Shown: positions 1,367-17,513 of the stretch, piece by piece
Numbering within the stretch: the stretch's first letter is position 1
Layout of the letters: each line of letters opens with the position of its first letter
Assembly (NCBI RefSeq): GCF_035285525.1
Contig: NZ_JAYKGW010000220.1
Span: forward strand, 1 to 20,626
Direction: 5' to 3'
Length of the DNA stretch: 20,626 bases
Source of the DNA: Okeania sp.
Lineage (GTDB): Bacteria > Cyanobacteriota > Cyanobacteriia > Cyanobacteriales > Microcoleaceae
Translations under genes and position numbers: made by a program
The notes under the pieces: model-generated
The model's database searches: none
Told to the model about the DNA's origin: nothing
The model's input: only the letters and a program-made list of their open reading frames with translations

Positions 1367-1381
1367 ATTTCTAGAAAAAAG

Positions 1382-1807
1382 ATGGAAGAATCATTTATTC
1401 AAGCTGCGGGGAGGCATTTACATGATGCAGAAATTTTACTGGTTCAAAATCGTTGGGATAATGCTGTTTATTTGGCAGGTTATGTAGTAGAATGCACTTT
1501 TAAAGTTCTAGTAGAGGAATATATTAATAATGAAGCTTGTAAAAAATTCGGTCACGATTTAACAGAACTTCAAGGTCAAAATATTGAAAGGTTACGGATA
1601 ATTTATCCCATTATTGATTCTAAATTGCCAATTTCCCGGACAAACGGAACTGTTTTAGTCAACTATCATCCACAGCGACGTTATTTTCAGTCTGGTTTGT
1701 GGAATGAAAAAAAGGCAAAAGAGGCAGTTCAACGAGCAGCAGAAATCTATAACGAAATTATTCCCAGATTAATTTTGGATGGTAGGATATCTAGTGAGGA
1801 ACTTTAA
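1382..1807 (+). CDS. Small all-helical HEPN-like domain protein (first gene of the three-gene operon)
   Basis: 141-aa ORF. The N-terminal pattern A..HL.DAE.LL....W.NAVYLAGY.VEC.FKVL, the central GHDL..L motif and the later RRY...........A......A motif resemble the classical HEPN (PF05168-type) four-helix layout. A canonical Rx4-6H motif is not visible (the sequence reads KKFGH). The stop TAA (1805-1807) directly abuts the next ATG (1808). Confidence 0.5.
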   Translation: MEESFIQAAGRHLHDAEILLVQNRWDNAVYLAGYVVECTFKVLVEEYINNEACKKFGHDLTELQGQNIERLRIIYPIIDSKLPISRTNGTVLVNYHPQRRYFQSGLWNEKKAKEAVQRAAEIYNEIIPRLILDGRISSEEL

Positions 1808-3166
1808 ATGATTAACATAACTTTCGGTGAAACATTTGACAAAGTACAAGAATGTTTTGAGGAATCTTCTATAAAAGACCAACTAGAATCAATAACTATC
1901 ATTCGGGATGTTAAGGGAAAAATTCGGCTTTTTCTGGAACCTCTGGAAAATAGCAATCTGGAAAAGGATATCTTAGACAACCTGAAAAAATCTCTCGACC
2001 AAAAACTGGGTCCATACTATGGTCAAGATATTTGGTTACCACAAGGCGAAAAAGATGGTTATAAAAATTTAATAGATGTCATTCGCGAAGAAAGAGTTCT
2101 CGCAGAATGGGATGATGAAAGTCAACCTCGTTGGTATGTGTTAGAACGTCATGTAGCTAAACAAGCATGGACAAATCAAAAAGAAGTTGAGCTTCCTTGG
2201 CCTCAAGAAGTAGTAGATGAAGGTCATAAACCAGCAATAGTTTCATTTTTTTCCTTCAAAGGTGGAGTTGGTCGCACTACAACATTAGTAGCAACAGCTC
2301 TGACATTAGCTCGTCACGGTCATCGAGTAGCTATAGTCGATTTAGATTTAGAGTCTCCTGGTATATCAACTATTTTTTTCCCAGATACAGAGGCGAGTTT
2401 TCCAGGGGCGATCGATTATTTGCTAGAGAAAAATATCCAAGGTGAAAATTGGAAACTCAGCGCTCATTTGCAGTTAGTTAACGATCCAATATTGTTAGGA
2501 GATGTAGAAAAAAGTTTGCCTATATTGGGTGCAGGAAATGTAGATAATAACTATCTGGAAAAGTTAGCAAGACTTGATTGCCAGAATATACTTGATTTCA
2601 ATAACCCACTGTTAAAAACATGGCATGATATGTTCAAAGAACTAAATGCAGCAGCAAGAAAACTAGATTTTATTTTACTGGATACCAGAACAGGGTTTCA
2701 CGATATTGGTGGGTTGGCGATCGCTGACTTATCCCATGCAGCAGTCATTTTTGGCACTCAATCTCGTCAAAGTTGGAAAGGTTTAACTCATGTTATTCGT
2801 CGTTTAGCAAGACCTTTAGCTCCTGAACCGCTGCCAGTGTTACTCATCCATGCTCTAGCTCCGGGATTAGGTGTACCAGGGAGAGAACAGGAACTGCAAG
2901 ATTTTCGAGAGCAAGCTTATACTATTTTTCAAGATAATTACTATAGCGAAAATGTTCCTAACTCCACCGACAAAGATGCTAGTTTTTACCCAATAGTTAT
3001 AGACTGGCAAAGTGAATTGCGTAGAGAAATAACTTTATTTCAGCGAGATTATACTCCGGAGGAAGATAGTCGTTTGTGGGGTATTATTGATGTTTTAACA
3101 GGCAAATCTTACCAACAGCTTGCTGAAAAAATTTGTAGTATTTTTAAGCGTAAATTAAACAAATAA
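1808..3166 (+). CDS. ParA/MinD-fold (SIMIBI) ATPase with variant Walker A KGGVGR-TT and a roughly 150-aa N-terminal extension
   Basis: The deviant Walker A reads SFFSFKGGVGRTTT (K151 at 2258-2260, R156 at 2273-2275), where ParA/MinD proteins have KGGxGK[ST]. The switch region is VAIVDLDLESPG and the Walker B-like motif is DFILLDTRTG. Start is ATG with translational coupling to the upstream ORF. Confidence 0.8.
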   Translation: MINITFGETFDKVQECFEESSIKDQLESITIIRDVKGKIRLFLEPLENSNLEKDILDNLKKSLDQKLGPYYGQDIWLPQGEKDGYKNLIDVIREERVLAEWDDESQPRWYVLERHVAKQAWTNQKEVELPWPQEVVDEGHKPAIVSFFSFKGGVGRTTTLVATALTLARHGHRVAIVDLDLESPGISTIFFPDTEASFPGAIDYLLEKNIQGENWKLSAHLQLVNDPILLGDVEKSLPILGAGNVDNNYLEKLARLDCQNILDFNNPLLKTWHDMFKELNAAARKLDFILLDTRTGFHDIGGLAIADLSHAAVIFGTQSRQSWKGLTHVIRRLARPLAPEPLPVLLIHALAPGLGVPGREQELQDFREQAYTIFQDNYYSENVPNSTDKDASFYPIVIDWQSELRREITLFQRDYTPEEDSRLWGIIDVLTGKSYQQLAEKICSIFKRKLNK

Positions 3167-3180
3167 AATTAGATAGAAAA

Positions 3181-4689
3181 ATGACTAACTTTGATAAAAA
3201 AAAGCTATTAGAAATTATGGCTAATGTTGCACCAGGAAGAGGTGTAGCGGAACATGAAAGTGACAATGAAAATGTATTCCTAAAAAACTTTTTACCTGTA
3301 GCTCGCTACCGTAAGGCATTAGACACTGACACATTTTTAATATTAGGTGGTAGAGGTGTTGGTAAAACAGAATTTTTTCGTTTACTAGCAAATTCTTCTG
3401 GTCGGAAAGCTTTAGTAAAAAACTTAAACATTAAATATTTTCCCCCTTTAGAAACAACAATCTGGATTGCTGGATATGGTCGTACTAAGACTAGGGAAAA
3501 AAAATTTCCTGCACCAGAAACAACAGAACACTATATGAAAGGTAAGGATAGAATTGATTGGCGCATTTTCTGGATTGGATTAATATTAGGAGTAATATTT
3601 CAGCAAGAAAAAGAATTATCAAATTATAATTGGGTTGAGGAAGTACCAGAGGAAATTCGCGATAGTTTAACGAACAAATTATCATTACTTTCCCACTGGT
3701 TTCCAGATGCTAGCCAGAACTTTGAAAATATCAACTATGCTTTGGATAAATTAGATGAAGAATTATTGGCAAGCGATCGTTGGTTATTTATCACTTATGA
3801 TGAGCTAGATCGAATTGTTCCTTCTTATTTAGAACTTGCCGCTCCCATTGCCGAACTATTAGCATTTTGGCTAGATAGATGGCGTCGTTGGGAACGAATT
3901 AGACCTAAAATATTTCTACGCACAGATTTATTTCAACAGGAATTTTTAGGATTTCCAGATGCTTCTAAACTCAGAGGACATCAAATTAGTTTAGAGTGGG
4001 AAACTTCATGGTTATATCAAGTATTTGTTAAGCGTTTAGCTAACTCTGGAGAAGAAATGAATGATTATTTACAAATAGTTCCTGGTTTAATTCCATCAAA
4101 AAAAGATAAAATATTAGGTATATTGCCAGCATCAGATGAGTCTCGTTTTGAATTATTAATGGAAAAAATAGTCGGGGAATATATGGGAAATAATCATCGA
4201 AAAGGTTACACTTATAATTGGGTTCCTAATCACCTTCAAGATGCCAAAGGAAGAATTGCTCCACGTTCTTTTTTAAAACTATTTTCCTTAGCAGCAGAAC
4301 GTAGATTAGAAAAATTTGAGGAAAAAGATTTACCAGAAAATCGCTTATTATTACCTTCTGATTTACAAGGAGCTTTAATGGATACTTCTCAAGATAGAAT
4401 CAAAGAACTTACAGAGGAAGAATATCCCTGGTTAGAAGCTTTTAAAAAAAGTCTTAAAAATCTCAACCTTTTAACTGAAGAGGAAAAATTTCTCAACATA
4501 CTGAAAAACACAAAATGGGATAAAGAACCCCCTAGCAAAAAACCAGAAGAAATTTTAAAATACTTAGAACAATTAGGTATTGTAGAAATTCGTAGCTCAG
4601 ATCGGCGAATTAATATGCCAGATATTTATAGATATGGTTTTGAAGTTAAACGCAAAGGTGGAATTAAACGTCCGAAAAAAAACAATTAA
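3181..4689 (+). CDS. P-loop NTPase of uncharacterised family (possibly the 'Sll1717-family P-loop ATPase'; family name from memory, unverified)
   Basis: Walker A is FLILGGRGVGKTEF (K62 at 3364-3366) and Walker B is WLFITYDELDRI. A long helical C-terminal region ends in a possible winged-helix-like segment, ILKYLEQLGIVEIR, and a basic tail, KRKGGIKRPKKNN. The gene sits 14 nt after the previous stop. Confidence 0.75.
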   Translation: MTNFDKKKLLEIMANVAPGRGVAEHESDNENVFLKNFLPVARYRKALDTDTFLILGGRGVGKTEFFRLLANSSGRKALVKNLNIKYFPPLETTIWIAGYGRTKTREKKFPAPETTEHYMKGKDRIDWRIFWIGLILGVIFQQEKELSNYNWVEEVPEEIRDSLTNKLSLLSHWFPDASQNFENINYALDKLDEELLASDRWLFITYDELDRIVPSYLELAAPIAELLAFWLDRWRRWERIRPKIFLRTDLFQQEFLGFPDASKLRGHQISLEWETSWLYQVFVKRLANSGEEMNDYLQIVPGLIPSKKDKILGILPASDESRFELLMEKIVGEYMGNNHRKGYTYNWVPNHLQDAKGRIAPRSFLKLFSLAAERRLEKFEEKDLPENRLLLPSDLQGALMDTSQDRIKELTEEEYPWLEAFKKSLKNLNLLTEEEKFLNILKNTKWDKEPPSKKPEEILKYLEQLGIVEIRSSDRRINMPDIYRYGFEVKRKGGIKRPKKNN

Positions 4690-4724
4690 AATAACACAAT
4701 TATTTTTTAACGAGATATTTGATT

Positions 4725-4978
4725 ATGTCTAAGGATACAATTAACAATTTAATTACTGAAATTCTGAATAATTTAGAGAGAATGAGTAGGCATTTTGATG
4801 CTTCAATGGTAAAGGTATTCCTGATGATAAAAAACAATAGAGATTTCAACCCTTAACCACTACTTCTAAAAAAGCTAAAGGCAGTGGTTTAGGATTGTAT
4901 ATTATTCGTAGAACTTTAATTAAAATGGAAGGTCATATTCGAGAAACGGGAGAAAATGGTGTAAGATTTGAAATCTAA
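4725..4978 (+). pseudogene. Decayed fragment of a histidine-kinase-type ATPase (HATPase_c) domain
   Basis: The frame from 4805 reads NGKGIPDDKKQ*RFQPLTTTSKKAKGSGLGLYIIRRTLIKMEGHIRETGENGVRFEI*. This covers the G1, F and G2 boxes (DNGxGI / FxPFxTTK / GxGLGL), with in-frame stops at 4838-4840 and 4976-4978. An N-box-like piece, LITEILNNL, lies upstream in a different frame (from 4725), so there is a frameshift as well as the nonsense codons. Confidence 0.6.
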
Positions 4979-5043
4979 ATTCCTGATGGCGATCGCTAAT
5001 CAAGATTTAATCAAAATTAAATAATAACAGGATTAACTATATT

Positions 5044-5235
5044 GGAGCCAGTTTGGCAAAATATATTAAAGTCCGGATTGAAAGTTTAGAAGTCAAGGAA
5101 GTTTGTATTATTGATGTTAAAAGTTCCCTCAAAAAGGCATTTCTTAAAAGCGACAAAGGTTGAGAATTTTATATTAGAGCCGCAAACTCTTCCAGAAGAT
5201 TAACTATCCCAGAAATTTACGATCATTTTTCTTGA
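5044..5235 (+). pseudogene. C-terminal fragment of an AlbA_2/Schlafen-like (divergent AAA) DNA-binding domain, with an in-frame stop
   Basis: The frame from 5044 reads GASLAKYIKVRIESLEVKEVCIIDVKSSLKKAFLKSDKG*EFYIRAANSSRRLTIPEIYDHFS*. The pattern V..I.V..S..P........FYIR.G.S...L...E is typical of the end of the AlbA_2 domain. There is a TGA at 5161-5163. No start codon or N-terminal part is present. Confidence 0.4.
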
Positions 5236-5539
5236 TTTAGACTAAACAAATGATTATTCATTTTAAGTGCATAAGCCAAATTAATTACACATTCTGTTAA
5301 CTCCCTGTTATCTCTTTCCTAAGTAAATATTTAATTTTTCTACTGATTTAACTCTAGTTGTACTGAAGATATTTATTGTGAAGATATTACAGCCTACAAT
5401 TTAAGTCAATGATAACTAAGAAAATAATTTTTTTATATAAATTCAACTTATTGGCTTTAAATTTGATAGAGATAATTGTAGTACCACTTCCGGTTGAGCT
5501 AGGTTGATTAAAAAAAAAATAATTTGAGAAGGAATCAAA

Positions 5540-6415
5540 ATGAGATTTTCTAGAATATGGATGACAATGCTAAGTTTGCTGGTGCTATTGCCAATGGGAT
5601 GTACATTTGAGTCAAATCAGACTAGCAATATTTCCTCTACAGGTTCTGAATCTTCTCAAGAAAAACAAACCATTAAAATAGGAGGAGCTGGTACACCTTA
5701 TCCAGCTATGAAACTATTAGCATCTGCATATCAGAAACAGACAAGTGGTACTAAAATAGACTTTATCGAATCTAGTCAGACTGGAGGGGGTATTGCGGGT
5801 GTCAAAGTAGGTTTGATTGAAATGGGTACTGTTACTCGACCCCCCAAACCTAAAGAAACTGCCGATCAACTGACATATCGTGAATTTGCCAAAGATGCTC
5901 TCTTAGTAGCGACTCACTCTAGCGTGGAAGGCGTTAAGAATTTAACAACTGAAGATTTACGCGCAATTTATAGTGGCCAAATTACTAATTGGCAAGAATT
6001 TGGGGGACCTGATGCGACAATAGTTGTCTTAGATAGACCCGAAGATGAATCTGGCAAAAAGTTATTACGAAAGTATTATTTAGGTTCCGACTTAGAAAAT
6101 TCACCGGATGCTATAGTGTTGCGTAGGGAAGCAGATTTAATTGATGCTATTCAGACTACACCCTACAGTATAGGTGCATTTTCCCTGGGTGAGACGATTA
6201 GTAATAATTTGCAAGTAAACCGTCTGAGTCTGAATGGAGTTGCACCAACTCCAGAGAATTTGCAATCTGGAAAATATACTATGGTCAGAAGTTTAGGTAT
6301 TGTCTGGTATGATGACCCTAACCCAGCAACCCAAGCATTCATTGACTTTATTTACGGGAAAACTGGGGCTGATGTTTTACAACAAGCCGGCTTTGTACCT
6401 ACTAAACTAGAATAA
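5540..6415 (+). CDS. PstS-family (PBP_like_2) periplasmic substrate-binding lipoprotein
   Basis: The signal peptide carries a lipobox LLPMG-C21. IKIGGAGTPYPAMKLLASAY...SSQTGGGIAGV matches the anion-binding N-lobe pattern of PstS/SphX-type proteins (GSGT...GSGxG). No pstCAB genes are nearby. Confidence 0.75.
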   Translation: MRFSRIWMTMLSLLVLLPMGCTFESNQTSNISSTGSESSQEKQTIKIGGAGTPYPAMKLLASAYQKQTSGTKIDFIESSQTGGGIAGVKVGLIEMGTVTRPPKPKETADQLTYREFAKDALLVATHSSVEGVKNLTTEDLRAIYSGQITNWQEFGGPDATIVVLDRPEDESGKKLLRKYYLGSDLENSPDAIVLRREADLIDAIQTTPYSIGAFSLGETISNNLQVNRLSLNGVAPTPENLQSGKYTMVRSLGIVWYDDPNPATQAFIDFIYGKTGADVLQQAGFVPTKLE

Positions 6416-6443
6416 ATCGTTTTCCTTAATTTCAAGCTTATCT

Positions 6444-8396
6444 ATGGAAATTCCTCGCTATTCAAACCTGCCTCTTGTGGGTAAAATATTGATTCCTATG
6501 CTGTCCATTTTCCTGGGAACTTGGATAGTGGGAGCTTTGGCTGTAGGCTATACTACAACTAAGAGGCAAGAAAATGAATTGAAAATAGAAACTGAGCATA
6601 CTGCTGCTCATATAAGCTATGATTTTGGATTAACTAATGAGTTATTGAGTTTTAAGGCCAAATCTATTGCAGATAATTCTGAGTTTTCAGAAGCGGTTGC
6701 CAAGCAGAATAAACAGGATTTGTTGAGAATACTTTTGCCACTGCGCTCTAGCTTAGAATTGGATTTGGTAAAAGTAGTAGATACAGAAGGAATAATCCTA
6801 TCAAGATTGACAAACTCTACTATGGATAAAACTCCACTAAAAGATTTAAAGCTCCGTCAACTGGCGCAAAGTGGTTTAATTTTCAGCAAGTTGGTCTTGT
6901 CGCAAGACTCGAAAAAGCTTCTGTTAGTAAAGGTTATTTCGATTAAGTCCAGAGAGAGAATTATTGGTGGTCTTATTATTGGTAAGACTTTAACATCAGA
7001 AGTTATTCAGGAGATTTTGGATGATACCAGACAGCATTTAGTTTTCCTAGAAGATTCAAAGGTTATTATTTCAACTGTTGCAGTGGATGGCTCAATTGAG
7101 TGGTCAAAAATTACATCTCAAGATATTCTTCAGGAAATTGAAACTTCAGGAAAGTCTTACTTTGCTCAACGAATCGACTTCCCTGAGATTTTAAAAGAGC
7201 GCATTCATGTAGTTGTATTGACTCCACTGACATCTCTACATGAATCTCAACGGGAAATCTGGTTCCAAATTGGGAGTTTTGCTTTAATTGGTGGTTTGAT
7301 AGTTTCTGTACTTGGTTTTTGGATTACCCGTTTGGTGACGCGGCGAATTACTTTGCTAACAACAGCAACTCAAGAGTTAAGCAAAGGAGACCTGAGCATT
7401 CATTTGGAATTTAAGGGTAAGGATGAAATTTATACGCTCGCAACCAGCTTTAATGAGATGAGCGAACAACTCAATGAGCGCGATTTAAAGATTAAAAAAC
7501 AGCTACAAGAATTGGAGTTATTGGTAAAAAAACTTCAGCAAACTCCCCAATTAATTCAAACCGAGAAGATGGCAAGTTTAGGACAAATGGTAGCTGGAGT
7601 CGCCCATGAAATTAATAATCCTGTGGGTTTTATCTATGGTAATGTGTCACACGCTAAGGGATATGTGAACGATCTGGTAAATTTGGTGCGTTTATATCAG
7701 GAGCATTTCCCGGAGCGATCGCCTCTAATTTTAGAAGAAGAGGAAACTATTGAGATCGATTTTTTGATTGAGGATGTGTTCAAGCTATTAGATTCTATGA
7801 ATTATGGTGCGGAACGCATTAAAGAGATTGTCTCCAGTTTACGCAGTTTCTCGCGCCAGGATCAATTAGAGATGAAAAAAGTCAATATTCACGATGGTAT
7901 TGATAGTACCCTGACTATTTTAGGGCATCGTCTCAGTGCTAAGAGCGATCGCCCAGTTATTGAAGTAGTGAAAGATTACGGTAATTTACCTTTTGTTGAT
8001 TGCTTTGCGGGGCAACTTAATCAGGTGTTTATGAATTTGTTGACTAATGCTATTGATGCAATGGAAGAGCTAATTATTAAACAGAATATAGAGAAAAGTA
8101 GCGATCGCATAAGTTTCCAGCCACAAATTTCAATTAAAACTTATGTACTCAACGATAACTGGGTAACTATTGAAATTGCTGATAATGGTTCTGGTATTCC
8201 TGAAGATATTCGCAACAAATTATTCGATCCATTTTTTACAACTAAAGCAGTGGGAAAAGGAACAGGTTTAGGGTTATCAATTAGTTATCAGATTATTGTG
8301 GAAAAACATGGTGGGAAATTATGGTGTGAATCAGAATTAGGGGAAGCAACTAAATTTTTTATTTCTATTCCAGTAACTCCAAATATCTCTACATAA
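6444..8396 (+). CDS. Membrane sensor histidine kinase (two TM segments, about 240-aa periplasmic domain, HAMP, DHp, HATPase_c)
   Basis: TM1 is [22 protein letters not shown] and TM2 is [21 protein letters not shown], followed by a HAMP-like segment ([18 protein letters not shown]...FNEMSEQL). The H-box is [12 protein letters not shown] (H388, 7605-7607), the N-box is [14 protein letters not shown]1 is DNGSGIP and G2 is GTGLGLSIS. The gene sits 28 nt after the PstS-like gene. Confidence 0.9.
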
Positions 8397-8527
8397 ATTA
8401 TCTAGCTGAAGTTTTGTCATCTATAGGTTCACCTCTATAAAAAGTAACACAGGCTTCAAGGCTATAACAAGCAAGATGCTTGTGTTACCATTTATTACTA
8501 AATAAAATATTGTTAATTCTTGAATTT

Positions 8528-9112
8528 TTACTCTTCTTGAAATTTCTCATCATTTAAAACTTGTTTCTTGTTATCTACTTCTAATGCTATAACTTCTTGA
8601 CTACCTCCGATAAAACTCTTCTTATAATCAATTGGCAATAAAATACTTGAAGCTTCCTTCACTTCCAAAATTAATGCTTGCCCACTACCGCTAAATAAAC
8701 GAATAACTGCATAAGAAACTAACACTGGTGAAGCTAATATCAAAGCAGCTATCATTCCCACAGGAGCCACTAATTGATAAACAATTAAAGAAGTAGGTTG
8801 AAACTCTTCATATTGAGAAAACACTCTAGATAACCACCACACTAATAATGCCATTACCGCAAATCCGAAAAGAGTAACAATCGAAGGTATAATAAAAGAC
8901 AAAAATACAGCCATTACTCCAATTAAAGCACCCCAACCTTGAGCAACTATTTTCTGTGATAGGTCAGAAACCATAATCGTTCCATGCACAAACCAAACGA
9001 TAAATCCCAAGACTAATGTAATTGCTGAACCTGCCAAAAAAATGTTAACGCCCTTAATAAAAAGTTGCTTAACCTCATTATTTTTTAACTTAAATTGTTT
9101 CTGGTTTTCCAT
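8528..9112 (-). CDS. Hypothetical integral membrane protein (about 4 TM segments plus an acidic C-terminal tail)
   Basis: 194-aa ORF with four clear hydrophobic segments. It is convergent with the histidine kinase. I do not recognise the family. Confidence 0.6.
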   Translation of the reverse strand: MENQKQFKLKNNEVKQLFIKGVNIFLAGSAITLVLGFIVWFVHGTIMVSDLSQKIVAQGWGALIGVMAVFLSFIIPSIVTLFGFAVMALLVWWLSRVFSQYEEFQPTSLIVYQLVAPVGMIAALILASPVLVSYAVIRLFSGSGQALILEVKEASSILLPIDYKKSFIGGSQEVIALEVDNKKQVLNDEKFQEE

Positions 9113-9436: not shown

Positions 9437-9895
9437 ATGCTCAACACAATTGCTACTCAGATTAGAAAGTGGTTCCCAGCAACAGAGGTTAGCGCTCACT
9501 GTGATGGCCCTTGCGGTGTTTATGACCCTGCTTCGGCTCGAATTTATGCTGAAGCGGTATTATCCATGACTAAGAAAATCTTAGACCTCGATCCAAAAGC
9601 TGGAGATCATAAGACTGCTAATACTCTTTCTCGCTATATTGCAATTAAGGAAGAGCAAGCTCAAAAAACTAAGGAAGATTTACTCGTTCTTTGGACTGAT
9701 TATTTCAAGCCTGTACATTTAGAAAAGTATCCAGACCTCCACGATACTTTTTGGAAAGCTGCTAAACTTTGCTCTGCTTGTAAAGTAGAGGTTAGTTTGG
9801 AACACGCTACTGAGTTATTAGAGACTGTGGAGAAAATTCACAATATGTTCTGGGCTACTAAGGAACGTGATGTAGCTTGGGTTAAGGCTAGCTAA
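9437..9895 (+). CDS. sodN: Nickel-containing superoxide dismutase precursor (NiSOD)
   Basis: A 20-aa leader is followed by the Ni-hook HCDGPCGVYDP (canonical HCxxPCGVY). The downstream LWTDYFKP.H.EKYP.LH and IHNMFWATK segments match the four-helix NiSOD body as known from Streptomyces and marine cyanobacteria. Confidence 0.9.
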   Translation: MLNTIATQIRKWFPATEVSAHCDGPCGVYDPASARIYAEAVLSMTKKILDLDPKAGDHKTANTLSRYIAIKEEQAQKTKEDLLVLWTDYFKPVHLEKYPDLHDTFWKAAKLCSACKVEVSLEHATELLETVEKIHNMFWATKERDVAWVKAS

Positions 9896-10044
9896 TTTAT
9901 AAGCAATAAGCTGTCAGCTAACAGCTATTAGCTGCCTATTCGCCTATTCTAAGGTCGTACATTATTTGTCTGAAATGTGCTGTACTTTTAAGGTATGGGC
10001 GGAGTCTGATAGTTGAATAGTTAAGCTAATTTTTTTAGTTTGAG

Positions 10045-10416
10045 GTGGTAGGCAAAAAGTTGATACAAGAAAGTAATAAGAAAGAGTTATTACTTTGGTT
10101 ATTGAGATTACGTCAACGGTTTTGTGTTACTGGACTTTCTATGTTTCCTGTGCTAAAGCCAGGGGAGGAAGTTCTGGTAGATACAAGAGCCTACCGCCAC
10201 TTTTTACCAGAAATTGGGGATTTGGTGGTGGCGAAACATCCCCATCGTCAAGATTTAAGAATAATTAAGTGGGTTGCCTTAGTTGATGAAAAAGGTAACT
10301 GTTTTTTATTGGGAGAAAATAAAGAAGAAAGTAGCGATAGTCGTTCTTTTGGTGTTGTGAGTTCCCAACAAATTATAGGTAGAGTTACTAGCAGATTCCC
10401 TGAATATAATCAATAA
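10045..10416 (+). CDS. sodX: NiSOD maturation protease (S26 signal-peptidase-like)
   Basis: The motifs GLSMFPVLKPGEEVLVD (catalytic Ser, SMxP), GDLVVAKHP, RIIKWV (general-base Lys region) and GENKEESSDSRSFG (GDN..S.DSR) are S26 hallmarks. The gene lies directly downstream of sodN. The GTG start at 10045 is uncertain. Confidence 0.8.
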   Translation: MVGKKLIQESNKKELLLWLLRLRQRFCVTGLSMFPVLKPGEEVLVDTRAYRHFLPEIGDLVVAKHPHRQDLRIIKWVALVDEKGNCFLLGENKEESSDSRSFGVVSSQQIIGRVTSRFPEYNQ

Positions 10417-10829
10417 TTCTCAAGAAAAATTATAATTGCTGATATCTCAACAATTATAATTCTAAGTAGCTTTACATCTTTTATTTACTGCTAAATTTTA
10501 GAAATTAAATGCCCAAAATATAAAGTTTTTAGCAGTAAAAATTTGGGGAGAATTATCTGTTTTTAATCACACCAAAATAGACGGCGTTTCTCTTGCTGAA
10601 AAACTGCCATTTTTGGCAAGATTTTCTCAAAAAAGCCAACATTGATGGCAGCATTAAAGAGAGAAAATTTTCTGTGATTTTTAGTCGTGAGCAATTTTAT
10701 TCAGAATGCGATCGCTCATTTCAGTATCGACTTAATACTCAGTCCTATTCTGTGTTTTGCCCATGACTGGAAAATTGTTCTTTGGTCTCTAATTGTGGTA
10801 TCATAGCTTCAATCAAAATACATCGCTTT

Positions 10830-10859
10830 GGCCACTAACTTCTAGTGGTCATTTTTTTT
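10830..10859 (+). terminator. Intrinsic terminator with no associated ORF
   Basis: The stem ggccacta (10830-10837) / tagtggtc (10843-10850) has 8 bp including one G-U pair, with a 5-nt loop. It is followed by A then T8 (10852-10859). Confidence 0.55.
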
Positions 10860-11122
10860 GTCTTCAGGTTTAAAAGTCTATTGCAAGTCCATAAGTCATT
10901 GCTATTGGCCTTTTGAACCAAAGTACATTACATACTTATTGCAACTAATATTCAATAGTTTTTAGGTTTTGTCAAGGTTTTTCTGAGATTTTTTATGATT
11001 AAGTTTTGTAACATAAATAAATCAAATCTTAATGATTCCCTTTAAGATAAGCAGAACAGGCTTATGGCAATGGTTGCAAGTAAATTAATGAAAATTATTA
11101 TTATTAAAATCTCAAAAAAGTA

Positions 11123-11151
11123 TTGACAATAATTTGCATTAGGTTGATAAT
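11123..11151 (+). promoter_or_regulatory. Sigma70-type promoter TTGACA-N17-GATAAT
   Basis: TTGACA lies at 11123-11128, followed by a 17-nt spacer and GATAAT at 11146-11151, in an AT-rich context. No ORF follows. Confidence 0.45.
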
Positions 11152-11157
11152 AATAAT

Positions 11158-11268
11158 CACGTTGCTTATGGTGTTCTTCTCTCTGGTAGGACAACGTATT
11201 TATCGAGTCCCTCAGTCTCAATGATTATGTTTTGTTGGTAGACTGGAAAGCAATAGGGACTCTTTTTT
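11158..11268 (+). ncRNA. Candidate small RNA of about 105-110 nt (two stem-loops, the second a terminator)
   Basis: The predicted transcription start is just after the promoter at 11123-11151. SL1 pairs acgttg (11159-11164) with caacgt (11192-11197), and its loop is CU-rich (cttatggtgttcttctctctggtagga). SL2 pairs gagtccct+cagtct (11205-11218) with agactg (11240-11245) and agggactc (11255-11262), followed by T6 (11263-11268). There is no ORF. Confidence 0.35.
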
Positions 11269-11333
11269 ATTTTGGGTCTATAGAAACCATTTTGTATCTT
11301 TGCACGCGCTGCGAGTTTGTGGCAACTGAAAAA

Positions 11334-11512
11334 GGGCGGGTTTCACCATCTTGTAGGGGCGGGTCTTTCAAGTAAGCTAAGGAGTCTTCAGGTTAAGCTA
11401 GCTAGACCCGCCCCCTATCTTGCGTTCGCACACAGGGCGGGTCTTTCAAGTAAGCTAAGGAGTCTTCAGGTTAAGCTAGCTAGACCCGCCCCCTATCTTG
11501 CGTTCGCACACA
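11334..11512. repeat. Perfect tandem duplication (2 x 78 bp) of a GC-clamped hairpin repeat, preceded by a partial copy
   Basis: Units 11357-11434 and 11435-11512 are identical by eye. Each contains gggcgggtct ... agacccgccc (a 10-bp stem with a 37-nt loop carrying taaggag). A partial copy, gggcgggttt, lies at 11334-11343. This is the same family as 60-115, in the opposite orientation. Confidence 0.85.
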
Positions 11513-11671
11513 CCTAGGTAAAAGAAACCGGGTTTCTGGAGACATACAAATGTTTGATTCTCCTTGGGAATTTAGCTTTGCGCTAAGGAATCTATTCCTT
11601 GGCGCTTTTGACTTCTGCCTTTCACCAAAGTCTAATTATTCAACCGGACATGATATAAAACTGTATTTCTG

Positions 11672-11692
11672 ACTCCCTACTCCCTATTCCCT
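11672..11692. repeat. Short tandem heptamer repeat (STRR-like): ACTCCCT ACTCCCT ATTCCCT
   Basis: Read directly from the sequence: three consecutive heptamers. Confidence 0.6.
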
Positions 11693-11815
11693 ATAATAAC
11701 TTAAACTTTCGTAAAAAAGGTATTTAAAATTCTCTATCCGGTACGATCAATCTACATTTATTCATCTATTACCCTCATTTCTATTTCGTTTTCTCTAAAT
11801 TGTTCATAATTCTAC

Positions 11816-11844
11816 TTGACAGAATCTTCAAATTAGATCACAAT
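11816..11844 (+). promoter_or_regulatory. Possible promoter of the giant gene: TTGACA-N17-CACAAT
   Basis: TTGACA lies at 11816-11821, followed by a 17-nt spacer and CACAAT at 11839-11844, about 55 nt upstream of the GTG start. Confidence 0.3.
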
Positions 11845-11897
11845 AAGTTCAGGCTGCATCTCAAATAAAAAATACATATATTTGGGAGTAATAAAAA

Positions 11898-14800
11898 GTG
11901 GAAAAATCCAAAATATTCTCGGATTTCCAGATAGAAGGTCCTAACTCAGTACCATATCAACTATTTAATGTATTAGTTCCCGGAACTATAGAAGTAGAGG
12001 TTGATTGGGAAGGTCAAGGTGAAAAATTAACTGTTTCACTAGAAGGTCGGCGCGATTTTGGAAGTCGAAAACCTCCTGTTCAAATTACAGATTCTTCTGC
12101 TTCTCCTCTAAAACTAACTTATGATGTCACAGAAGAAGACATTGCCAGGGGTGTTGGTTGGCGGTTAGTGATTCGGGGTGAAGATGGAACAAATATTAAG
12201 GGAGATGTTAAAATTATCACTCCTTTTGACCCAGATGTTTATGAAACCTTTGAACAGCAAAAAATTAGTCTGCGTAGTGGTGACTTCCTTCCCACACGGA
12301 CTTTAGAGAAAGACTTTTTTGAAGAACTGAATGAAGATAAAAGTTCAAAAGGATTGCATGGTATTATCACCCTGAATAGAACACCAGAACATGATGAACT
12401 TTTAAAACTGGAAAAAGCAGGAATAGATCGCCAGAGTTTTCTGCCTGGGAAACACGCCTTTGGATTAGTTGAGGAAGATTTCGACCCCTCAGACCCCAAC
12501 ATTCCTCCTAAATTAATTCGTAGTATTACACCCTTAACACCAGAAGATAAAATTGCGCCCGATATTTTGGTGGGAAATTATCAGGAATACTTTATCCCAG
12601 AAAGAAAAGAGAATTACGTTCTGAATGATAATGGTACTCTCCGACTATCTGTCTTATTTGCACAAGATACTCCTCTGGAAACTATTCGTCAGTCAATTTT
12701 GAAGCGGGAGGCTATTTCTTTTTCTCCCATTAGCGATAATCTTTGGGAAGTTGAGATTGAGGAAAAAAATCTCATTAGTCTAGCAAGTTACGACCAAGTT
12801 GAATGGATAGATCCAGGTTCCTTCCCAGATTTACCAGAAAATGATAATACTCGTTCAGTTGTTAACGTAGATAATGTTCAAGATGCTCAAACTGATGGCA
12901 TGGGGAACCTGATTTTATCCGGTGGGTTTCCAGTTTATGACGGGTTATCTGGTGATGGTGTGACTGTGGGGGTAGATGATAGTGGTATTGATGCCTCTCA
13001 TCCAGACTTAAATGTGGTTGCGGATAGACCTGCAAGTAGTTTTCATGGAACCCATGTTGGGGGTATTATTGCAGGTAATGGTTCTCAAAGTAATTCTAAT
13101 GGTGGTACGCCTTTTGAATGGCGAGGTATGGCTCCCAATGCAGGTTTAATTGATTCTGACGACCTGATTAACACTGCCAATGTCTTAAACGCAATAGATA
13201 ATAATTCTCTAGATGTCTCTAACCATTCTCATGCGGTGAGTCCTGATGGAAATTATAGCGGTAATAACCAAACTATTGATCGATTAATTCGAGGGGGTGC
13301 AACTGCTGGGGGTGAACTTGTTCCGGAAAGACCGAAAGTGTTTTCTGCTGGCAACGGAGGTAGTAGCGCTCAATATGGAAATCAATTAGGATATTATTCT
13401 ATTACCAAACAAGTCAAAAATGCTGTTGTAGTGGGAAATTGGAATGCTTCTGATGGAGATGGAAACATTAATAATGATTTTCTCAGCACAGGTAGTAGTC
13501 TCGGACCAGCTTATGATGGTCGGATTAAACCTGATGTCGTAGCACCAGGAACTAATATCAGGTCAACCAATACCAGTAATGGTTATGGATCAAGTAGCGG
13601 AACTTCTATGGCTTCCCCTGCAGTCGCTGGTATTCATGCTTTATTGTTAGAAGGTTGGCAAAATACTTACAGTACCCCTCTAGGCACAACAATTGACGAT
13701 CGCCCTCCTTTACCATCTACCCTCAGAGCATTATTAATTCAAACCGCAGTTGATATCGTTGATGATGATGTTCGGAACAATACACTTACTGAGATTGATT
13801 CTGATAGCAATCAAGCTAATGGTAATGACGGTAATGGACGAGTCACCGCAACTGAAGGTCCCGACTATGCTACTGGTTGGGGTTTAGTGGATGCAGAAGC
13901 TGCAGTTGAAGTCATGCAGGATTTTCGTCTAGAAGGTGGTGTTCCCATTCCTAATCGCATTATTCAAGATGCAGTCATGCACAATGGAATCATTGAATAT
14001 AATTTTGTTGTGGATGAAGATTTTATTGATTCTGGCGATCCACTCAAATTGACATTAGCTTGGGATGATTTTGAGGGAGCCATTCAAAATCCTGCTATCA
14101 ACCCCACGTTAGTAAATGACCTTGATTTAGAAATAGTCGCCCCAGACGGTACAATATTCTACCCTTGGCAGTTAGGTCATACAATAGAAGACTTAATGGG
14201 TAATCCCTTGCCGAATAATGCTCAACCCCCTGGAACAGCAATTTCTATTAATCAAGAGATTACCCCGACCCTCACACCTGCCATCAATAATGACTACATT
14301 CCTGCTAATGCTTTAACTGGAAATGGAGCTTGGGTAGCAACACGAGGGAAAGACCATCTCAACAATGTGGAACAGGTGTTAGTTGATAGTGCAGATTTAG
14401 AAGAAGGTCATTGGACAGCTCGTGTGATTGGTTTTGATGTGCAAGCAGGTACAGCACAAGACTATTCTTTAGTAGGTTTTCCCTATCCTGAGTTACCAGA
14501 CTTAGTTGCATTCAGTAACGATAAAGTTAGCTTACCTTCTGGTGGGGGAACAGTTGAATTTGATTGGACAGTTAGTAATACTGGGGAGCTAGGAACAGGA
14601 ACTAATTTTGAATATGAGGTTTTACTTTCTACAGATTTCTTTGCTGATGCAAGTGATGTCGTTTTAACTGATACTAATCAAGCAAGTCTCGGACCTCTAG
14701 CTACAGGTGCTTCATTAAACCGTACTAGCGAAGTCACCATTAATAATTCTCATGCTGCACAACTTCTCGGTCCAGGTTCCACAGTTGACGACCTCATTGA

Positions 14801-17513
14801 TAATGATGCTTTCTTACTGGTGCGAGTAGACTCCGATGATGATATTCTAGAACATAACGAAGAAAATACGGCTGCTATCCAATTAGCTCGTACAGTTGAT
14901 GTGGTGCTAGTAATGGATCGTAGTGGTAGTATGGCTTCACAAGTTCCAGTTTCTAATGGAAACCGACCCAAAATTGAATTGTTGCAAGACTCCGCTAATT
15001 TATTCCTAGATTTGATTCGCCTTGATGCAGGCGATCGCTTAGGGGAAGTTAGTTTCGCAGGTAGTGTGACTACAGATTTTGGACCAGGAGATGTTTTAAC
15101 TGAGATTACTTCAGGTAATATTAATAATGCTGAAAATCAAATTAATAACCTCAGTCCTGGTGGTAGTACCAATATTCGTGGAGCGTTGCAGGAAGGACTA
15201 GATTTATTGACAGATGCTCCTGATGGCGAAAATAATCGTCGTGTAATTGTCTTCCTTTCTGATGGAATGCGCACAGCAGGTGGCGATCCGACTGCTCCTG
15301 CTTTCTTACAACAATTTGATGATGAAAATGTTAAAGTCTTCTCTGTTGGATTTGGTACTGAAGGTGCAAGTGGCAATGCTGGAATTGATGTAGATTTACT
15401 GCAAACCTTAACTAATGTAGGCGACCAAGGTTTTTACCAAGTAACTGAAAGTGCCTTAGAACTTGATAAATTCTTTGTCAATGCGGTAGCGGGGGCTATA
15501 GGTTCTGATGTAATTGTAGACCCAATTGATTATATTGCTCCCGGTGAAACTCACACTGTAGATATTACATTAGGTGAGCAAGATGGGGTAGCTTCCTTTA
15601 TTCTCACCAGTGATAATCCACAGTTCCCTCTAGATTTAGCATTACGCAGTCCATCTGGATTAGAAATCAATGCCAATAACTTTAATTCATTTGGCGAGCA
15701 AATTTCCTACATTAATGCTCCTACCCACGATATTTTCCAAGTACATCTTCCCATAGCAGCACAAGCAAATATCGACCATGGAGAAACCTGGGAGATGGTC
15801 ATTACTAACCCCAACTCCAGGACTGTTACTTACTCTGCTTCTGCTATTGCGGAGTCTACAGTTCATTTAGACATATTACCTCCCCAATCTAGTGATGGCA
15901 TTTTCAATCCAGGAGAACCTATTCCACTGCAAGTATTCTTAGAGGAAAATAATCAAGTTCCGATCCAAGATGCTTCTATAACAGTATCGGTCACTGGTCC
16001 AACCGCAGATTTAGGTAATTACCTCTCATCTGGAGTTATCACTCAGAAAGATTTGAAACAAGTTCCCGCTCAAATTAGACGTGAACCTTTGAGTTTGCAG
16101 GAGCGGATCGTAATTGCTATACAAAATAAATTGGGTAAAAATCCTCTATCTCCTGTGCAACTCGATCCGATTGAGCTAACCGAATTAGACGAAGGATTTT
16201 ACTCAGGAGAATTTTTAGACACTAAAGTTCCCGGAACCTATACTTTTGTGGTCAATGTCGAAGGTTTTACTTCTGATTGGCAACCCTTTCAAAGAGAAGC
16301 AACTTATACTGTCAACGTTTCCGATAATGAAGTCGATCCTGACAAAACGAAGGTTGATATTATCGCATCCAAACCTGGTAGCGGTGTAGTTACAATTACT
16401 CCCAAAACTACTGCCGGTAATTTTGTCGGACCAGGTTTTGCCGATGATATTGTCTTAGGAGGGAAAGGCTTAATTCCGAAAACAACTGTAATAGACAACC
16501 TAGATGGCAGTTATACACAACAGTTTGAAATAGAAACCAATATTGAGGAAACTAAACTTAATATTCAACTTCTAGATACGAAATTACCACCTATTATCGT
16601 TACTGATAATCCCATTGATGACATCTTCCTCAAAGGTAGGGGAGGCAACGATAAACTCCAAGGTCAAACTGGCGATGACACCCTTATTGGTAATGGTGGC
16701 AATGATACTCTCCATGGTGGTGGTGGTAACGATATTCTCAATGGTGGTAGCGGCAACGATACTCTTAATGGTAGCAAGGGTGACGATACTCTTAATGGTG
16801 GTAGCGGTAACGATACTCTTAATGGTAGTAGCGGTGACGATATTCTCAATGGTGGCAAGGGTAAAGACAGATTGCTTGGTGGTAGTGGCAATGATATTCT
16901 CAATGGTGGTAAGGGTAAAGACAGACTACTTGGTGGTAGTGGCAATGATACTCTCAATGGCGATCGCGATAACGATACTCTCAATGGTGGTAAGGGTAAA
17001 GACAGACTACTTGGTGGTAGAGGGAACGATCTATTAATAGGCGATAATGGTCAAGATACCTTGCTAGGAGAATCTGGTGACGATACTCTCAGAGGTGGTA
17101 GCGGTAATGATATTCTCAATGGTGGAGCAGGAAACGATGAACTCACAGGAGGGGGCAATATTGACAGCTTTGTCTTTGACACTAATAAGAAATTTAAGAC
17201 TAAGGATATAGGTATAGATGAAATTACTGATTTTTCCCAAAACCAGGGAGATATTATTCTTCTAGATTTGACAACTTTCAGTGCAATCAAAAGTTTGGCA
17301 GGAACTGGGTTTAGCATTATTGATGAATTTGCTGTAGTTACAAGTAATAAAAAGGCAGCAACCTCTGATGCTGTAATCGTCTATAATGAAAACAATGGTA
17401 ATTTGTTCTATAATCCCAATGGTAGTAGTGCAGGTTTCGGTAGTGGTGGTAGGTTTGCCACTTTGACAAATACTCCATCGTTAGTAGCAGACGATTTCTT
17501 CCTCAGAAATTAA
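11898..17513 (+). CDS. Giant multidomain secreted-type protein: N-terminal region, subtilisin-like S8 peptidase, P/CARDB-like beta domains, vWA domain, Ig-like domains, about 19 RTX (hemolysin-type Ca-binding) nonapeptides and a C-terminal domain
   Basis: GTG start with GGGAG 9 nt upstream (11884-11888). The S8 catalytic triad is VGVDDSGID (about 12972-12990), HGTHVGG (about 13044-13062) and GTSMASPAVAG (about 13599-13620), with the oxyanion-hole motif SAGNGG. LTLAWDD...NDLDLEIVAPDG is a protease-associated beta-domain pattern. The vWA MIDAS motif is VDVVLVMDRSGSM (about 14896-14935), with later GGSTNI and VIVFLSDG motifs. GGxGxDxLx repeats span 16635-17165. There is no N-terminal signal peptide, which is consistent with C-terminal (type I) secretion. 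Confidence 0.9.
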   Translation: MEKSKIFSDFQIEGPNSVPYQLFNVLVPGTIEVEVDWEGQGEKLTVSLEGRRDFGSRKPPVQITDSSASPLKLTYDVTEEDIARGVGWRLVIRGEDGTNIKGDVKIITPFDPDVYETFEQQKISLRSGDFLPTRTLEKDFFEELNEDKSSKGLHGIITLNRTPEHDELLKLEKAGIDRQSFLPGKHAFGLVEEDFDPSDPNIPPKLIRSITPLTPEDKIAPDILVGNYQEYFIPERKENYVLNDNGTLRLSVLFAQDTPLETIRQSILKREAISFSPISDNLWEVEIEEKNLISLASYDQVEWIDPGSFPDLPENDNTRSVVNVDNVQDAQTDGMGNLILSGGFPVYDGLSGDGVTVGVDDSGIDASHPDLNVVADRPASSFHGTHVGGIIAGNGSQSNSNGGTPFEWRGMAPNAGLIDSDDLINTANVLNAIDNNSLDVSNHSHAVSPDGNYSGNNQTIDRLIRGGATAGGELVPERPKVFSAGNGGSSAQYGNQLGYYSITKQVKNAVVVGNWNASDGDGNINNDFLSTGSSLGPAYDGRIKPDVVAPGTNIRSTNTSNGYGSSSGTSMASPAVAGIHALLLEGWQNTYSTPLGTTIDDRPPLPSTLRALLIQTAVDIVDDDVRNNTLTEIDSDSNQANGNDGNGRVTATEGPDYATGWGLVDAEAAVEVMQDFRLEGGVPIPNRIIQDAVMHNGIIEYNFVVDEDFIDSGDPLKLTLAWDDFEGAIQNPAINPTLVNDLDLEIVAPDGTIFYPWQLGHTIEDLMGNPLPNNAQPPGTAISINQEITPTLTPAINNDYIPANALTGNGAWVATRGKDHLNNVEQVLVDSADLEEGHWTARVIGFDVQAGTAQDYSLVGFPYPELPDLVAFSNDKVSLPSGGGTVEFDWTVSNTGELGTGTNFEYEVLLSTDFFADASDVVLTDTNQASLGPLATGASLNRTSEVTINNSHAAQLLGPGSTVDDLIDNDAFLLVRVDSDDDILEHNEENTAAIQLARTVDVVLVMDRSGSMASQVPVSNGNRPKIELLQDSANLFLDLIRLDAGDRLGEVSFAGSVTTDFGPGDVLTEITSGNINNAENQINNLSPGGSTNIRGALQEGLDLLTDAPDGENNRRVIVFLSDGMRTAGGDPTAPAFLQQFDDENVKVFSVGFGTEGASGNAGIDVDLLQTLTNVGDQGFYQVTESALELDKFFVNAVAGAIGSDVIVDPIDYIAPGETHTVDITLGEQDGVASFILTSDNPQFPLDLALRSPSGLEINANNFNSFGEQISYINAPTHDIFQVHLPIAAQANIDHGETWEMVITNPNSRTVTYSASAIAESTVHLDILPPQSSDGIFNPGEPIPLQVFLEENNQVPIQDASITVSVTGPTADLGNYLSSGVITQKDLKQVPAQIRREPLSLQERIVIAIQNKLGKNPLSPVQLDPIELTELDEGFYSGEFLDTKVPGTYTFVVNVEGFTSDWQPFQREATYTVNVSDNEVDPDKTKVDIIASKPGSGVVTITPKTTAGNFVGPGFADDIVLGGKGLIPKTTVIDNLDGSYTQQFEIETNIEETKLNIQLLDTKLPPIIVTDNPIDDIFLKGRGGNDKLQGQTGDDTLIGNGGNDTLHGGGGNDILNGGSGNDTLNGSKGDDTLNGGSGNDTLNGSSGDDILNGGKGKDRLLGGSGNDILNGGKGKDRLLGGSGNDTLNGDRDNDTLNGGKGKDRLLGGRGNDLLIGDNGQDTLLGESGDDTLRGGSGNDILNGGAGNDELTGGGNIDSFVFDTNKKFKTKDIGIDEITDFSQNQGDIILLDLTTFSAIKSLAGTGFSIIDEFAVVTSNKKAATSDAVIVYNENNGNLFYNPNGSSAGFGSGGRFATLTNTPSLVADDFFLRN
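16635..17165 (+). repeat. 27-nt periodic coding repeats (RTX nonapeptides), including near-identical 54-nt blocks (GGKGKDRLLGGSGND[IT]LN x3)
   Basis: Read directly: ggtaagggtaaagacagactacttggtggtagtggcaatgat recurs. The alternative-frame ORFs 16615-17037(+), 16664-16984(-) and 17051-17317(-) are artefacts of this periodicity. Confidence 0.9.

Follow-up and report, generated by a model that had tools for sequence, protein, structure and literature searches.

A three-gene HEPN and NTPase locus of Okeania as a probable intact member of the phage defence candidate PDC-M28

Introduction

What is the role of a compact set of three cyanobacterial genes that encode one small HEPN-domain protein and two nucleoside triphosphatases (NTPases), and has such a set been recorded before? 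We address this question for positions 1382-4689 of contig NZ_JAYKGW010000220.1 from Okeania sp. (RefSeq assembly GCF_035285525.1), analysed within a stretch of 20,626 nucleotides (positions 1 to 20,626, referred to here as the window). The locus encodes a HEPN protein (gene 1), a ParA/MinD-fold NTPase (gene 2) and a P-loop NTPase of the Sll1717 family (gene 3). Matches to family profiles indicate that it is very probably an intact Okeania copy of PDC-M28, a cassette already listed as a phage defence candidate. As to what the trio does, we lean, by a little, towards an NTPase-controlled HEPN conflict module that would act in an abortive-infection or toxin-antitoxin-like manner, a function that we infer rather than observe. 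Below we set out the evidence for the family assignment, the depth of conservation of the gene order and the features of the three proteins, and we weigh the readings that compete for the function of the trio.

Results

Match to a catalogued defence candidate

All three proteins match the components of PDC-M28 in PADLOC-DB v2. Gene 2 matches PDC-M28B (PDLC04559) with an E-value of 4.1e-63, aligning protein residues 2-407 with profile positions 2-402 of 438, and gene 3 matches PDC-M28C (PDLC04561) with an E-value of 1.9e-79 (residues 24-498, profile positions 21-479 of 480). The match of gene 1 to PDC-M28A (PDLC04558) is shorter, covering residues 1-50 only and profile positions 1-50 of 138, with an E-value of 6.7e-13. 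Genes 1-3 are adjacent, co-directional and arranged in the order A>>B>>C, as in the cassette FAM_01482>>FAM_02546>>FAM_01036 that defines PDC-M28 in Table S8 of Payne et al. (bioRxiv 10.1101/2024.01.29.577857). These are matches to the hidden Markov model library and not a call by the PADLOC system rule, and the partial match to component A may fall short of a coverage cut-off.

The family to which the Okeania locus belongs is therefore not new: it is already catalogued as a candidate, and the locus is a new intact member of it, not an undescribed system. Payne et al. added 145 'phage defence candidates' (PDCs) to PADLOC, selecting them by 'guilt-by-embedding', in which members lie inside BREX, DISARM or type I restriction-modification (R-M) loci (bioRxiv 10.1101/2024.01.29.577857). 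PDC-M28 and the Okeania trio are both candidates, and the three Okeania proteins match the three component models in the same order; the two differ in the limited match of gene 1, and the source gives no domain analysis or mechanism. Our search of the literature found no mention of PDC-M28, of the KGGVGR or Sll1717 families, or of HEPN and ParA-like proteins together in an anti-phage role. Beyond the catalogue entry, the present analysis adds the anatomy of the proteins, the depth of synteny, the boundaries of the cassette, fusions of genes 2 and 3, and a set of invariant residues.

An initial annotation, made from the DNA sequence alone, had described three packed same-strand open reading frames (ORFs) encoding a HEPN-like protein, a SIMIBI-class ATPase and a P-loop NTPase with Walker A and B motifs and a basic tail. 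Both the packing and the anatomy are borne out, the former by ORF coordinates and sequence and the latter by family models and motifs. The generic names that it gave for relatives of genes 2 and 3, 'KGGVGR-motif variant AAA ATPase' and 'P-loop ATPase, Sll1717 family', are also correct: genes 2 and 3 match the corresponding NCBIfam models (NF047398 and NF047389), and identical proteins are recorded in NCBI under these names as Okeania sp. products. Its central claim, that the system was undescribed and would draw no match in PADLOC, fell: the locus corresponds to a system already on record, if only as a database candidate, and the claimed novelty is largely lost.

Each of the three ORFs is intact (Table 1). 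The TAA stop of gene 1 directly abuts the ATG of gene 2 (TAAATG, 1805-1810), and 14 nt separate genes 2 and 3 (3167-3180). When the window is compared by blastn with Okeania and Trichodesmium loci that are 85-96% identical, homology starts at 1377-1386 and ends at 4688-4707; the cassette block runs from 0-5 nt upstream of the gene 1 ATG to 0-18 nt downstream of the gene 3 stop. The GST gene that forms the upstream flank is not shared with these loci, and on that side sharing is confined to the cassette. These sharp boundaries and the differing upstream flanks of close relatives, like the decayed and second copies described below, speak for turnover of the cassette. The GC content of the trio matches that of its surroundings. 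Rfam and tRNA scans of the window came back empty.

Table 1. Coordinates of the cassette, its genes and their conserved motifs in the window (aa, amino acids)
Feature	Coordinates	Strand	Description
Cassette block	1377..4707	+	Extent of blastn homology between the window and loci L002-L008 and L039
Gene 1	1382..1807	+	141-aa HEPN-domain protein, PDC-M28A-like
Gene 1 His58 codon	1553..1555	+	Invariant, GHDL motif
Gene 1 Arg100 codon	1679..1681	+	Invariant, P-x2-R-Y motif preceding the last helix
Gene 2	1808..3166	+	452-aa ParA/MinD-fold (SIMIBI) NTPase, KGGVGR variant, PDC-M28B, NCBIfam NF047398
Gene 2 deviant Walker A KGGVGR	2258..2275	+	aa 151-156
Gene 2 Walker B/switch II DFILLDTRTG	2666..2695	+	D287, D292, R294 and G296 invariant
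Gene 3	3181..4689	+	502-aa P-loop NTPase, Sll1717 family, PDC-M28C, NCBIfam NF047389
Gene 3 Walker A GGRGVGKT	3346..3369	+	K62 invariant
Gene 3 Walker B FITYDELDR	3787..3813	+	D207 and D210 invariant
Gene 3 basic C-terminal tail KRKGGIKRPKKNN	4648..4686	+	R491, G493, G494 and R497 invariant

A fixed gene order across phyla

Co-occurrence of the three families in a fixed order across phyla had been set beforehand as a test of the initial annotation, and the order holds. A forward scan, in which a gene 3 alignment was searched against a single genome for each GTDB species, yielded 78 loci, to which we added a Heliomicrobium locus found separately. Among the 73 genome loci with enough upstream DNA, the gene 1-gene 2-gene 3 array is present in 63 (58 intact, 5 with a split gene); in the remaining 10, gene 1 or gene 2 is missing or truncated, and most of these look like decaying copies. 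A reverse scan of metagenomes with gene 2 as query returned 80 loci at 26-62% identity, and where the contig leaves room, gene 3 lies directly downstream of gene 2 in 70 of 71 loci and gene 1 directly upstream in 67 of 71. Since the same order recurs in far more than 100 independent loci, the arrangement is far beyond chance.

Hosts of the trio span at least eight phyla and include Cyanobacteria, Bacillota (Heliomicrobium, Alicyclobacillus, Tumebacillus, Lachnospiraceae and Oscillospiraceae), Acidobacteriota, Planctomycetota, Bacteroidota, Chloroflexota, Deltaproteobacteria and Poribacteria. Among filamentous and bloom-forming cyanobacteria the trio is widespread, Okeania, Trichodesmium, Microcystis and Dolichospermum included, and it is also found on enterobacterial IncF plasmids; some genomes hold two copies. 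The same layout persists at 25-29% gene 3 identity on plasmids of Enterobacter asburiae and Paraburkholderia, each time adjoining a tyrosine recombinase. In these plasmid trios, profile comparison finds the small protein homologous to gene 1 (probability 97-98%) and the KGGVGR protein homologous over its full length (99.9%). The Enterobacter copy (locus L088) is a complete trio at 78224-81560 of the conjugative IncFIB/IncFII plasmid NZ_CP063442.1, between the tyrosine recombinase and a TIR-domain gene, and it makes PDC-M28 directly testable in E. coli. Among phage genomes, INPHARED gave no match and IMG/VR two weak partial matches only, from which we conclude that the cassette is, in essence, not phage-borne.

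We looked for a conserved fourth gene among the neighbours of the relatives and found none; recurrent neighbours reflect only close kinship or promiscuous families such as ABC ATPases. In several lineages genes 2 and 3 are fused. One locus (L026, 13653-16809) carries, beside a normal trio, a two-gene variant in which a 151-aa HEPN-like ORF is followed by an 895-aa fusion protein composed of a KGGVGR core (residues 117-408) and an Sll1717 domain (433-894), without the N-terminal domain of gene 2. The hhalign probabilities are 99.7% for the KGGVGR core, 99.4% for the Sll1717 domain and 88% for the 151-aa ORF against gene 1, and two further loci (L055 and L064) each have one ORF that clusters with this fusion protein by BLASTP. 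The trio is inherited and lost as one unit, and because of this, together with the fusions, the products of genes 2 and 3 very probably act together.

A HEPN-T protein with a conserved polar site

Gene 1 scores 26.6 bits against the Pfam HEPN family PF05168 (HEPN-T; gathering score 22) over residues 3-125, and 19 of 24 diverse members of the gene 1 family match the same model. Across these 24 sequences, with identity down to 25%, R11, H12, E37, C38, K41, H58, R100 and G134 are invariant or near-invariant, and the seven invariant polar residues point to a real active or ligand-binding site. The histidine of the GHDL motif, which the initial annotation singled out, is indeed conserved, but alignment places it at H58 and not H57. 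In the HEPN-T/PF05168 family, which is often clustered with R-M operons, members that lack the histidine of the Rx4-6H RNase motif keep a conserved histidine elsewhere (Anantharaman et al. 2013, PMC3710099).

Two published classes of gene pair resemble this part of the trio. As in MNT-HEPN (MntA/HepT) pairs, a small HEPN protein is encoded beside a nucleotide-using partner, and the E-x3-K pair of gene 1 (E37, K41) and its conserved histidine and arginine residues recall those of HEPN-T families (PMC3710099); unlike those pairs, the Okeania locus has three genes and no nucleotidyltransferase, and the partner is a P-loop NTPase. HEPN-ParA/Soj dyads join a small HEPN gene to one for a ParA/Soj-like SIMIBI ATPase, which takes the place of MNT in MNT-HEPN pairs; Anantharaman et al. 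(2013, PMC3710099) predicted that such dyads are toxin-antitoxin systems in which the ATPase serves as the antitoxin. The dyad HEPN protein (MAE_18760) keeps an Rx4-6H motif, whereas gene 1, compared with it by description, lacks the motif and matches PF05168/HEPN-T; the Okeania trio in addition has a third, obligatory NTPase.

A ParA/MinD-fold NTPase with an altered P-loop

Gene 2 scores 176.7 bits on NCBIfam NF047398 (cut-off 90). Family models align only from residue 142-144 onwards, and the preceding ~143 residues are conserved and have no family match. In an alignment of 65 homologues the conserved core comprises K151, G152, G153, G155, R156, D178, D180, E182, D287, D292, R294, H298 and D299, and the conserved N-terminal residues are F6, D34, R114, K118, W121 and W131. 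The ParA/MinD signature KGGxxGK[ST], with both of its lysines, is not found in gene 2: the signature Lys151 is retained, and the canonical P-loop lysine is replaced by Arg156, which is invariant in the 65 homologues. In P-loop enzymes, a lysine-to-arginine change usually keeps nucleotide binding and impairs hydrolysis. A search of PDB sequences with the gene 2 profile matched the P-loop segment alone.

Gene 2 shares with ParA/MinD ATPases its fold, the signature lysine of the deviant Walker A motif and the Walker A' and B aspartates, and differs from them in the arginine at the GK[ST] lysine, in the extra N-terminal domain and in having no ParB/MinE-type partner or centromere. ParA/MinD-fold modules also occur in the predicted 'ternary' conflict systems, which are nucleoside triphosphate-dependent systems of multicellular bacteria, mainly cyanobacteria and actinobacteria, and whose MinD/ParA-like domains have been predicted to lack activity (Kaur et al. 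2020, PMC7159879). There the domains are fused to vWA/VMAP components with MoxR, whereas gene 2 is free-standing and its nucleotide-site residues are strongly conserved.

An Sll1717-family P-loop NTPase

Gene 3 scores 107.1 bits on NCBIfam NF047389 (cut-off 75). When 1.84 billion cluster representatives were searched with a profile, 1,629 relatives appeared at E <= 1e-3, and 436 of them reach E <= 1e-30. In an alignment of 69 sequences the conserved residues are G56, G59, G61, K62, D207, D210, R236, R239, R247 and D249, together with N350, H351, D354, R362 and R406 further along the protein.

The structure model of gene 3 has a mean predicted local distance difference test score (pLDDT) of 72.7 and a predicted template modelling score (pTM) of 0.72. 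Its best matches in the PDB, all of them weak, are Aeropyrum ORC2 and ORC1, CED-4, TnsC, RdrA, Apaf-1 and NOD2. Against Pfam, the ORC-CDC6-like family reaches 14 bits, under its cut-off of 27, and none of the STAND families reaches threshold. The model is consistent with an ORC/Cdc6-STAND-like AAA+ core that leads into a helical region at the C-terminal side, and a STAND-like core agrees with the TPR fusions and AAA_16 matches seen among relatives: the long gene 3 relatives (n = 32) include proteins with ParA-like domains (7), TPR arrays (4), protein kinase domains (2) and an SF1 helicase domain (1). The likeness to STAND and ORC/Cdc6 defence NTPases (Avs/AVAST-like proteins, RADAR RdrA, TnsC) consists of these weak best matches of the model, at E about 0.01; gene 3 differs from them in having no fused effector or repeat sensor. 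Judged by eye on the model, the region ~434-484 could be winged-helix-like, and the basic tail is a possible nucleic-acid contact.

The features of genes 2 and 3 bear on whether the trio could serve DNA partition or segregation, in which case the ParA-like ATPase would be the motor and gene 3 a DNA-binding adaptor. The ParA/MinD fold and signature lysine of gene 2, the basic tail and perhaps winged-helix-like end of gene 3 and the plasmid location of some copies would suit such a role. Against it stand the invariant arginine at the P-loop lysine, the nature of gene 3, itself a large NTPase unlike any centromere-binding protein, the scattered chromosomal sites of most copies and the presence of a HEPN protein, which has no place in partition. 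The window holds neither ParB nor centromere-like repeat arrays near the trio, which upholds the absence of a partition context stated in the initial annotation. We consider a partition function extremely improbable and reject it on the absence of ParB and of repeats and on the lysine-to-arginine replacement.

Genomic setting of the trio

In individual loci the trio lies inside or beside restriction-type genes. In a metagenomic locus (L092, 4394-13601), an MmeI-like methyltransferase gene stands on one side of the trio, whose gene 2 is frameshifted, and MZB/DUF1998 and PLD genes stand on the other; this is a DISARM-like locus and illustrates directly the kind of embedding by which PDC-M28 was defined. 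A trio on a Calothrix plasmid adjoins HmaA and HmaC, and the Heliomicrobium trio adjoins a type I R-M system and transposases. A GmrSD_N gene lies nearby in four trio loci, and HEC-05 and DrmMI genes lie near others. Family counts over 500 non-redundant neighbour ORFs include matches to BrxC, CBASS, Wadjet, ShosA, MkoC, type II methylases, TnpB and TnsB.

The defence or conflict role suggested by the initial annotation is made plausible by these DISARM-like, Hma and type I R-M neighbours and by plasmids with integrases; it was the novelty of the system that did not stand. One argument offered for that role is weak. Both flanks in the window are decayed as stated, with an in-frame TGA in the GST gene and HATPase_c and AlbA_2 remnants at 4804-5262, but the step from there to a defence island finds little support among neighbours that are ordinary (GST, a phosphate-binding-like protein, a histidine kinase and a nickel superoxide dismutase).

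Plasmid carriage raises the question of whether the trio is instead a toxin-antitoxin or addiction module that stabilises plasmids, integrative elements or islands, with phage defence at most a by-product. In that case the HEPN protein would act as toxin and the ParA-like NTPase as antitoxin or regulator, and gene 3 would have the part of an accessory controller. The published toxin-antitoxin prediction for HEPN-ParA/Soj pairs speaks for this explanation, as do the distant trios on conjugative and other plasmids, which lie directly beside tyrosine recombinases and other toxin-antitoxin genes, and the plasmid-borne Calothrix copy. Most trio copies, however, lie on chromosomes without a recognisable mobile element close by; gene 3, which codes for a 500-aa NTPase that a simple two-part toxin-antitoxin pair does not need, is conserved as strictly as genes 1 and 2; and gene 1 matches PF05168 and not the Rx4-6H-bearing MAE_18760 family of the published dyads. 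On balance, we regard a pure addiction module as unlikely, at roughly one chance among several.

A different explanation is a cellular role outside conflict, such as nucleotide-dependent positioning or RNA or DNA metabolism, in which a ParA-like and an ORC-like ATPase would do the work and the HEPN protein would be a non-catalytic adaptor. Many loci, including the window, sit among housekeeping genes, GC content matches the surroundings, Rx4-6H is missing from gene 1, and conservation of the proteins is unusually high, with ~60% identity between cyanobacterial orders. Yet the distribution is patchy over the phyla listed above, and between distant lineages the architecture is nearly identical and identity high, for example 58% to Heliomicrobium. 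Decayed copies are frequent, and there are second, paralogous copies, copies on plasmids and copies embedded in restriction-type loci. Because patchy spread, decay, plasmid carriage and embedding are typical of accessory, horizontally moving genes, we judge a cellular role to be decidedly improbable, more so than an addiction module.

Discussion

We propose that the trio is an NTPase-controlled HEPN conflict module, a reading that extends the published prediction of HEPN-ParA/Soj toxin-antitoxin pairs (PMC3710099). In the scheme that we envisage, gene 3, with its STAND/ORC-like ATPase core, helical C-terminal region and basic tail, would serve as a sensing or licensing ATPase. Gene 2 would form a dimer switch that depends on nucleotide, hydrolyses it slowly or not at all, and keeps the HEPN protein bound or in position. 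A trigger from an invader would release or activate the HEPN protein, the putative effector and probably an RNase with a non-canonical site, which would then cleave RNA and arrest growth of the infected cell.

Several observations weigh against the conflict-module reading. The canonical Rx4-6H RNase motif is absent from gene 1: R100 is followed by Y-F-Q-S-G-L, which puts S, G and L at +4 to +6, and the invariant histidines lie elsewhere (H58 and H12). Because the motif is absent, RNase activity of gene 1 is uncertain, and a search of PDB sequences with the gene 1 profile gave no meaningful match. The structural evidence for the two NTPases is thin as well: the AlphaFold model of gene 2 is poor (pLDDT 53) and its Foldseek matches are generic SIMIBI proteins only, and the fold matches of gene 3 are weak, the best in Foldseek being 1w5s_B at E = 0.014 with a template modelling score of 0.33-0.39. 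The assignment of sensor, switch and effector roles is inference only. Housekeeping settings surround the trio in the window, in the Dolichospermum loci and in three other sampled loci, and the association with defence, which comes from individual loci and not from an enrichment statistic, is suggestive. Promoter and terminator scans of the locus gave consensus matches no better than shuffles, and no promoter stands out; since the GST stop lies only 15 nt upstream of the gene 1 ATG, the trio here lacks a separate intergenic promoter region. Finally, PDC status denotes a candidate put forward by computation (bioRxiv 10.1101/2024.01.29.577857), and about half of the experimentally assayed PDC and HEC candidates confer no protection.

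The conserved residues allow a more specific and more speculative version of the conflict-module reading. HEPN-type domains may complete nucleotidyltransferase sites; a literature search on E145/K149 of kanamycin nucleotidyltransferase brought up nothing related. By analogy, the ParA/MinD-fold NTPase, in which the P-loop lysine is always arginine, might form a nucleotide-locked dimer whose nucleotide site is completed or read by the HEPN-T protein through E37-x3-K41, H58 and R100, and the STAND/ORC-like ATPase might license the release of a non-canonical HEPN activity. This would be a new kind of immune or conflict switch, and we know of no characterised defence system that uses a ParA-fold switch in such a way; we consider the idea a long shot, about as doubtful as the addiction module. 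If the trio does act in phage defence, its parts list would be unusual: a HEPN protein without the standard RNase motif, a ParA-fold NTPase without the P-loop lysine and a STAND/ORC-like ATPase.

Other features of the window

The window begins with a 31-nt repeat containing ACCCGCCCC, present twice (1-31 and 98-128). The GST gene upstream of the trio (599-1366) consists of a GST_N ORF (599-937) and a GST_C ORF (971-1366), split by a single in-frame TGA at 935-937; the split could reflect a pseudogene, a sequencing error or read-through.

Downstream of the trio, the fragments at 4804-5262 are 3'-end remnants of a TPR-HATPase_c gene (700 aa) and a response-regulator-DUF5678-Schlafen/AlbA_2 gene (353 aa). 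In Okeania sp. SIO3B5 (L004) and KiyG1 (L008) intact versions of both genes follow the trio on its downstream side, and their products may be a signalling or conflict pair. The interval 4707-8591 amounts to ~3.9 kb of extra DNA relative to five relatives (L002, L003, L006, L007 and L039), whose sequence runs from the trio straight into what lies at 8591 in the window; either the window carries an addition or the five relatives lost the stretch. Besides decayed fragments, the extra DNA holds genes for a PBP_like_2 binding protein (5540-6415) and a HAMP-HisKA-HATPase_c kinase (6444-8396), and a 194-aa ORF at 8528-9112 bounds it downstream.

Further along, at 9437-10416, a gene for a nickel superoxide dismutase (Sod_Ni) precedes one of the Peptidase_S26 family that probably encodes the Sod_Ni maturation peptidase, an ordinary housekeeping context. 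The ORF-poor gap at 10416-11898 contains a perfect two-copy tandem at 11357-11512, with a 78-nt unit that includes a GC-rich inverted repeat (GGGCGGGTCT...AGACCCGCCC); this tandem and the 31-nt repeat at the start of the window may belong to a small mobile or REP-like repeat family. The 1871-aa protein encoded at 11898-17513 has a subtilase S8 domain and a vWA domain together with numerous RTX calcium-binding repeats, for which tandem DNA repeats at 16688-17138 code. On the minus strand, 18297-20405 encodes a 702-aa Ser/Thr protein kinase fused to an FGE-sulfatase (formylglycine-generating-enzyme-like) domain, a domain that Kaur et al. (2020, PMC7159879) describe as confined almost entirely to conflict systems of cyanobacteria.

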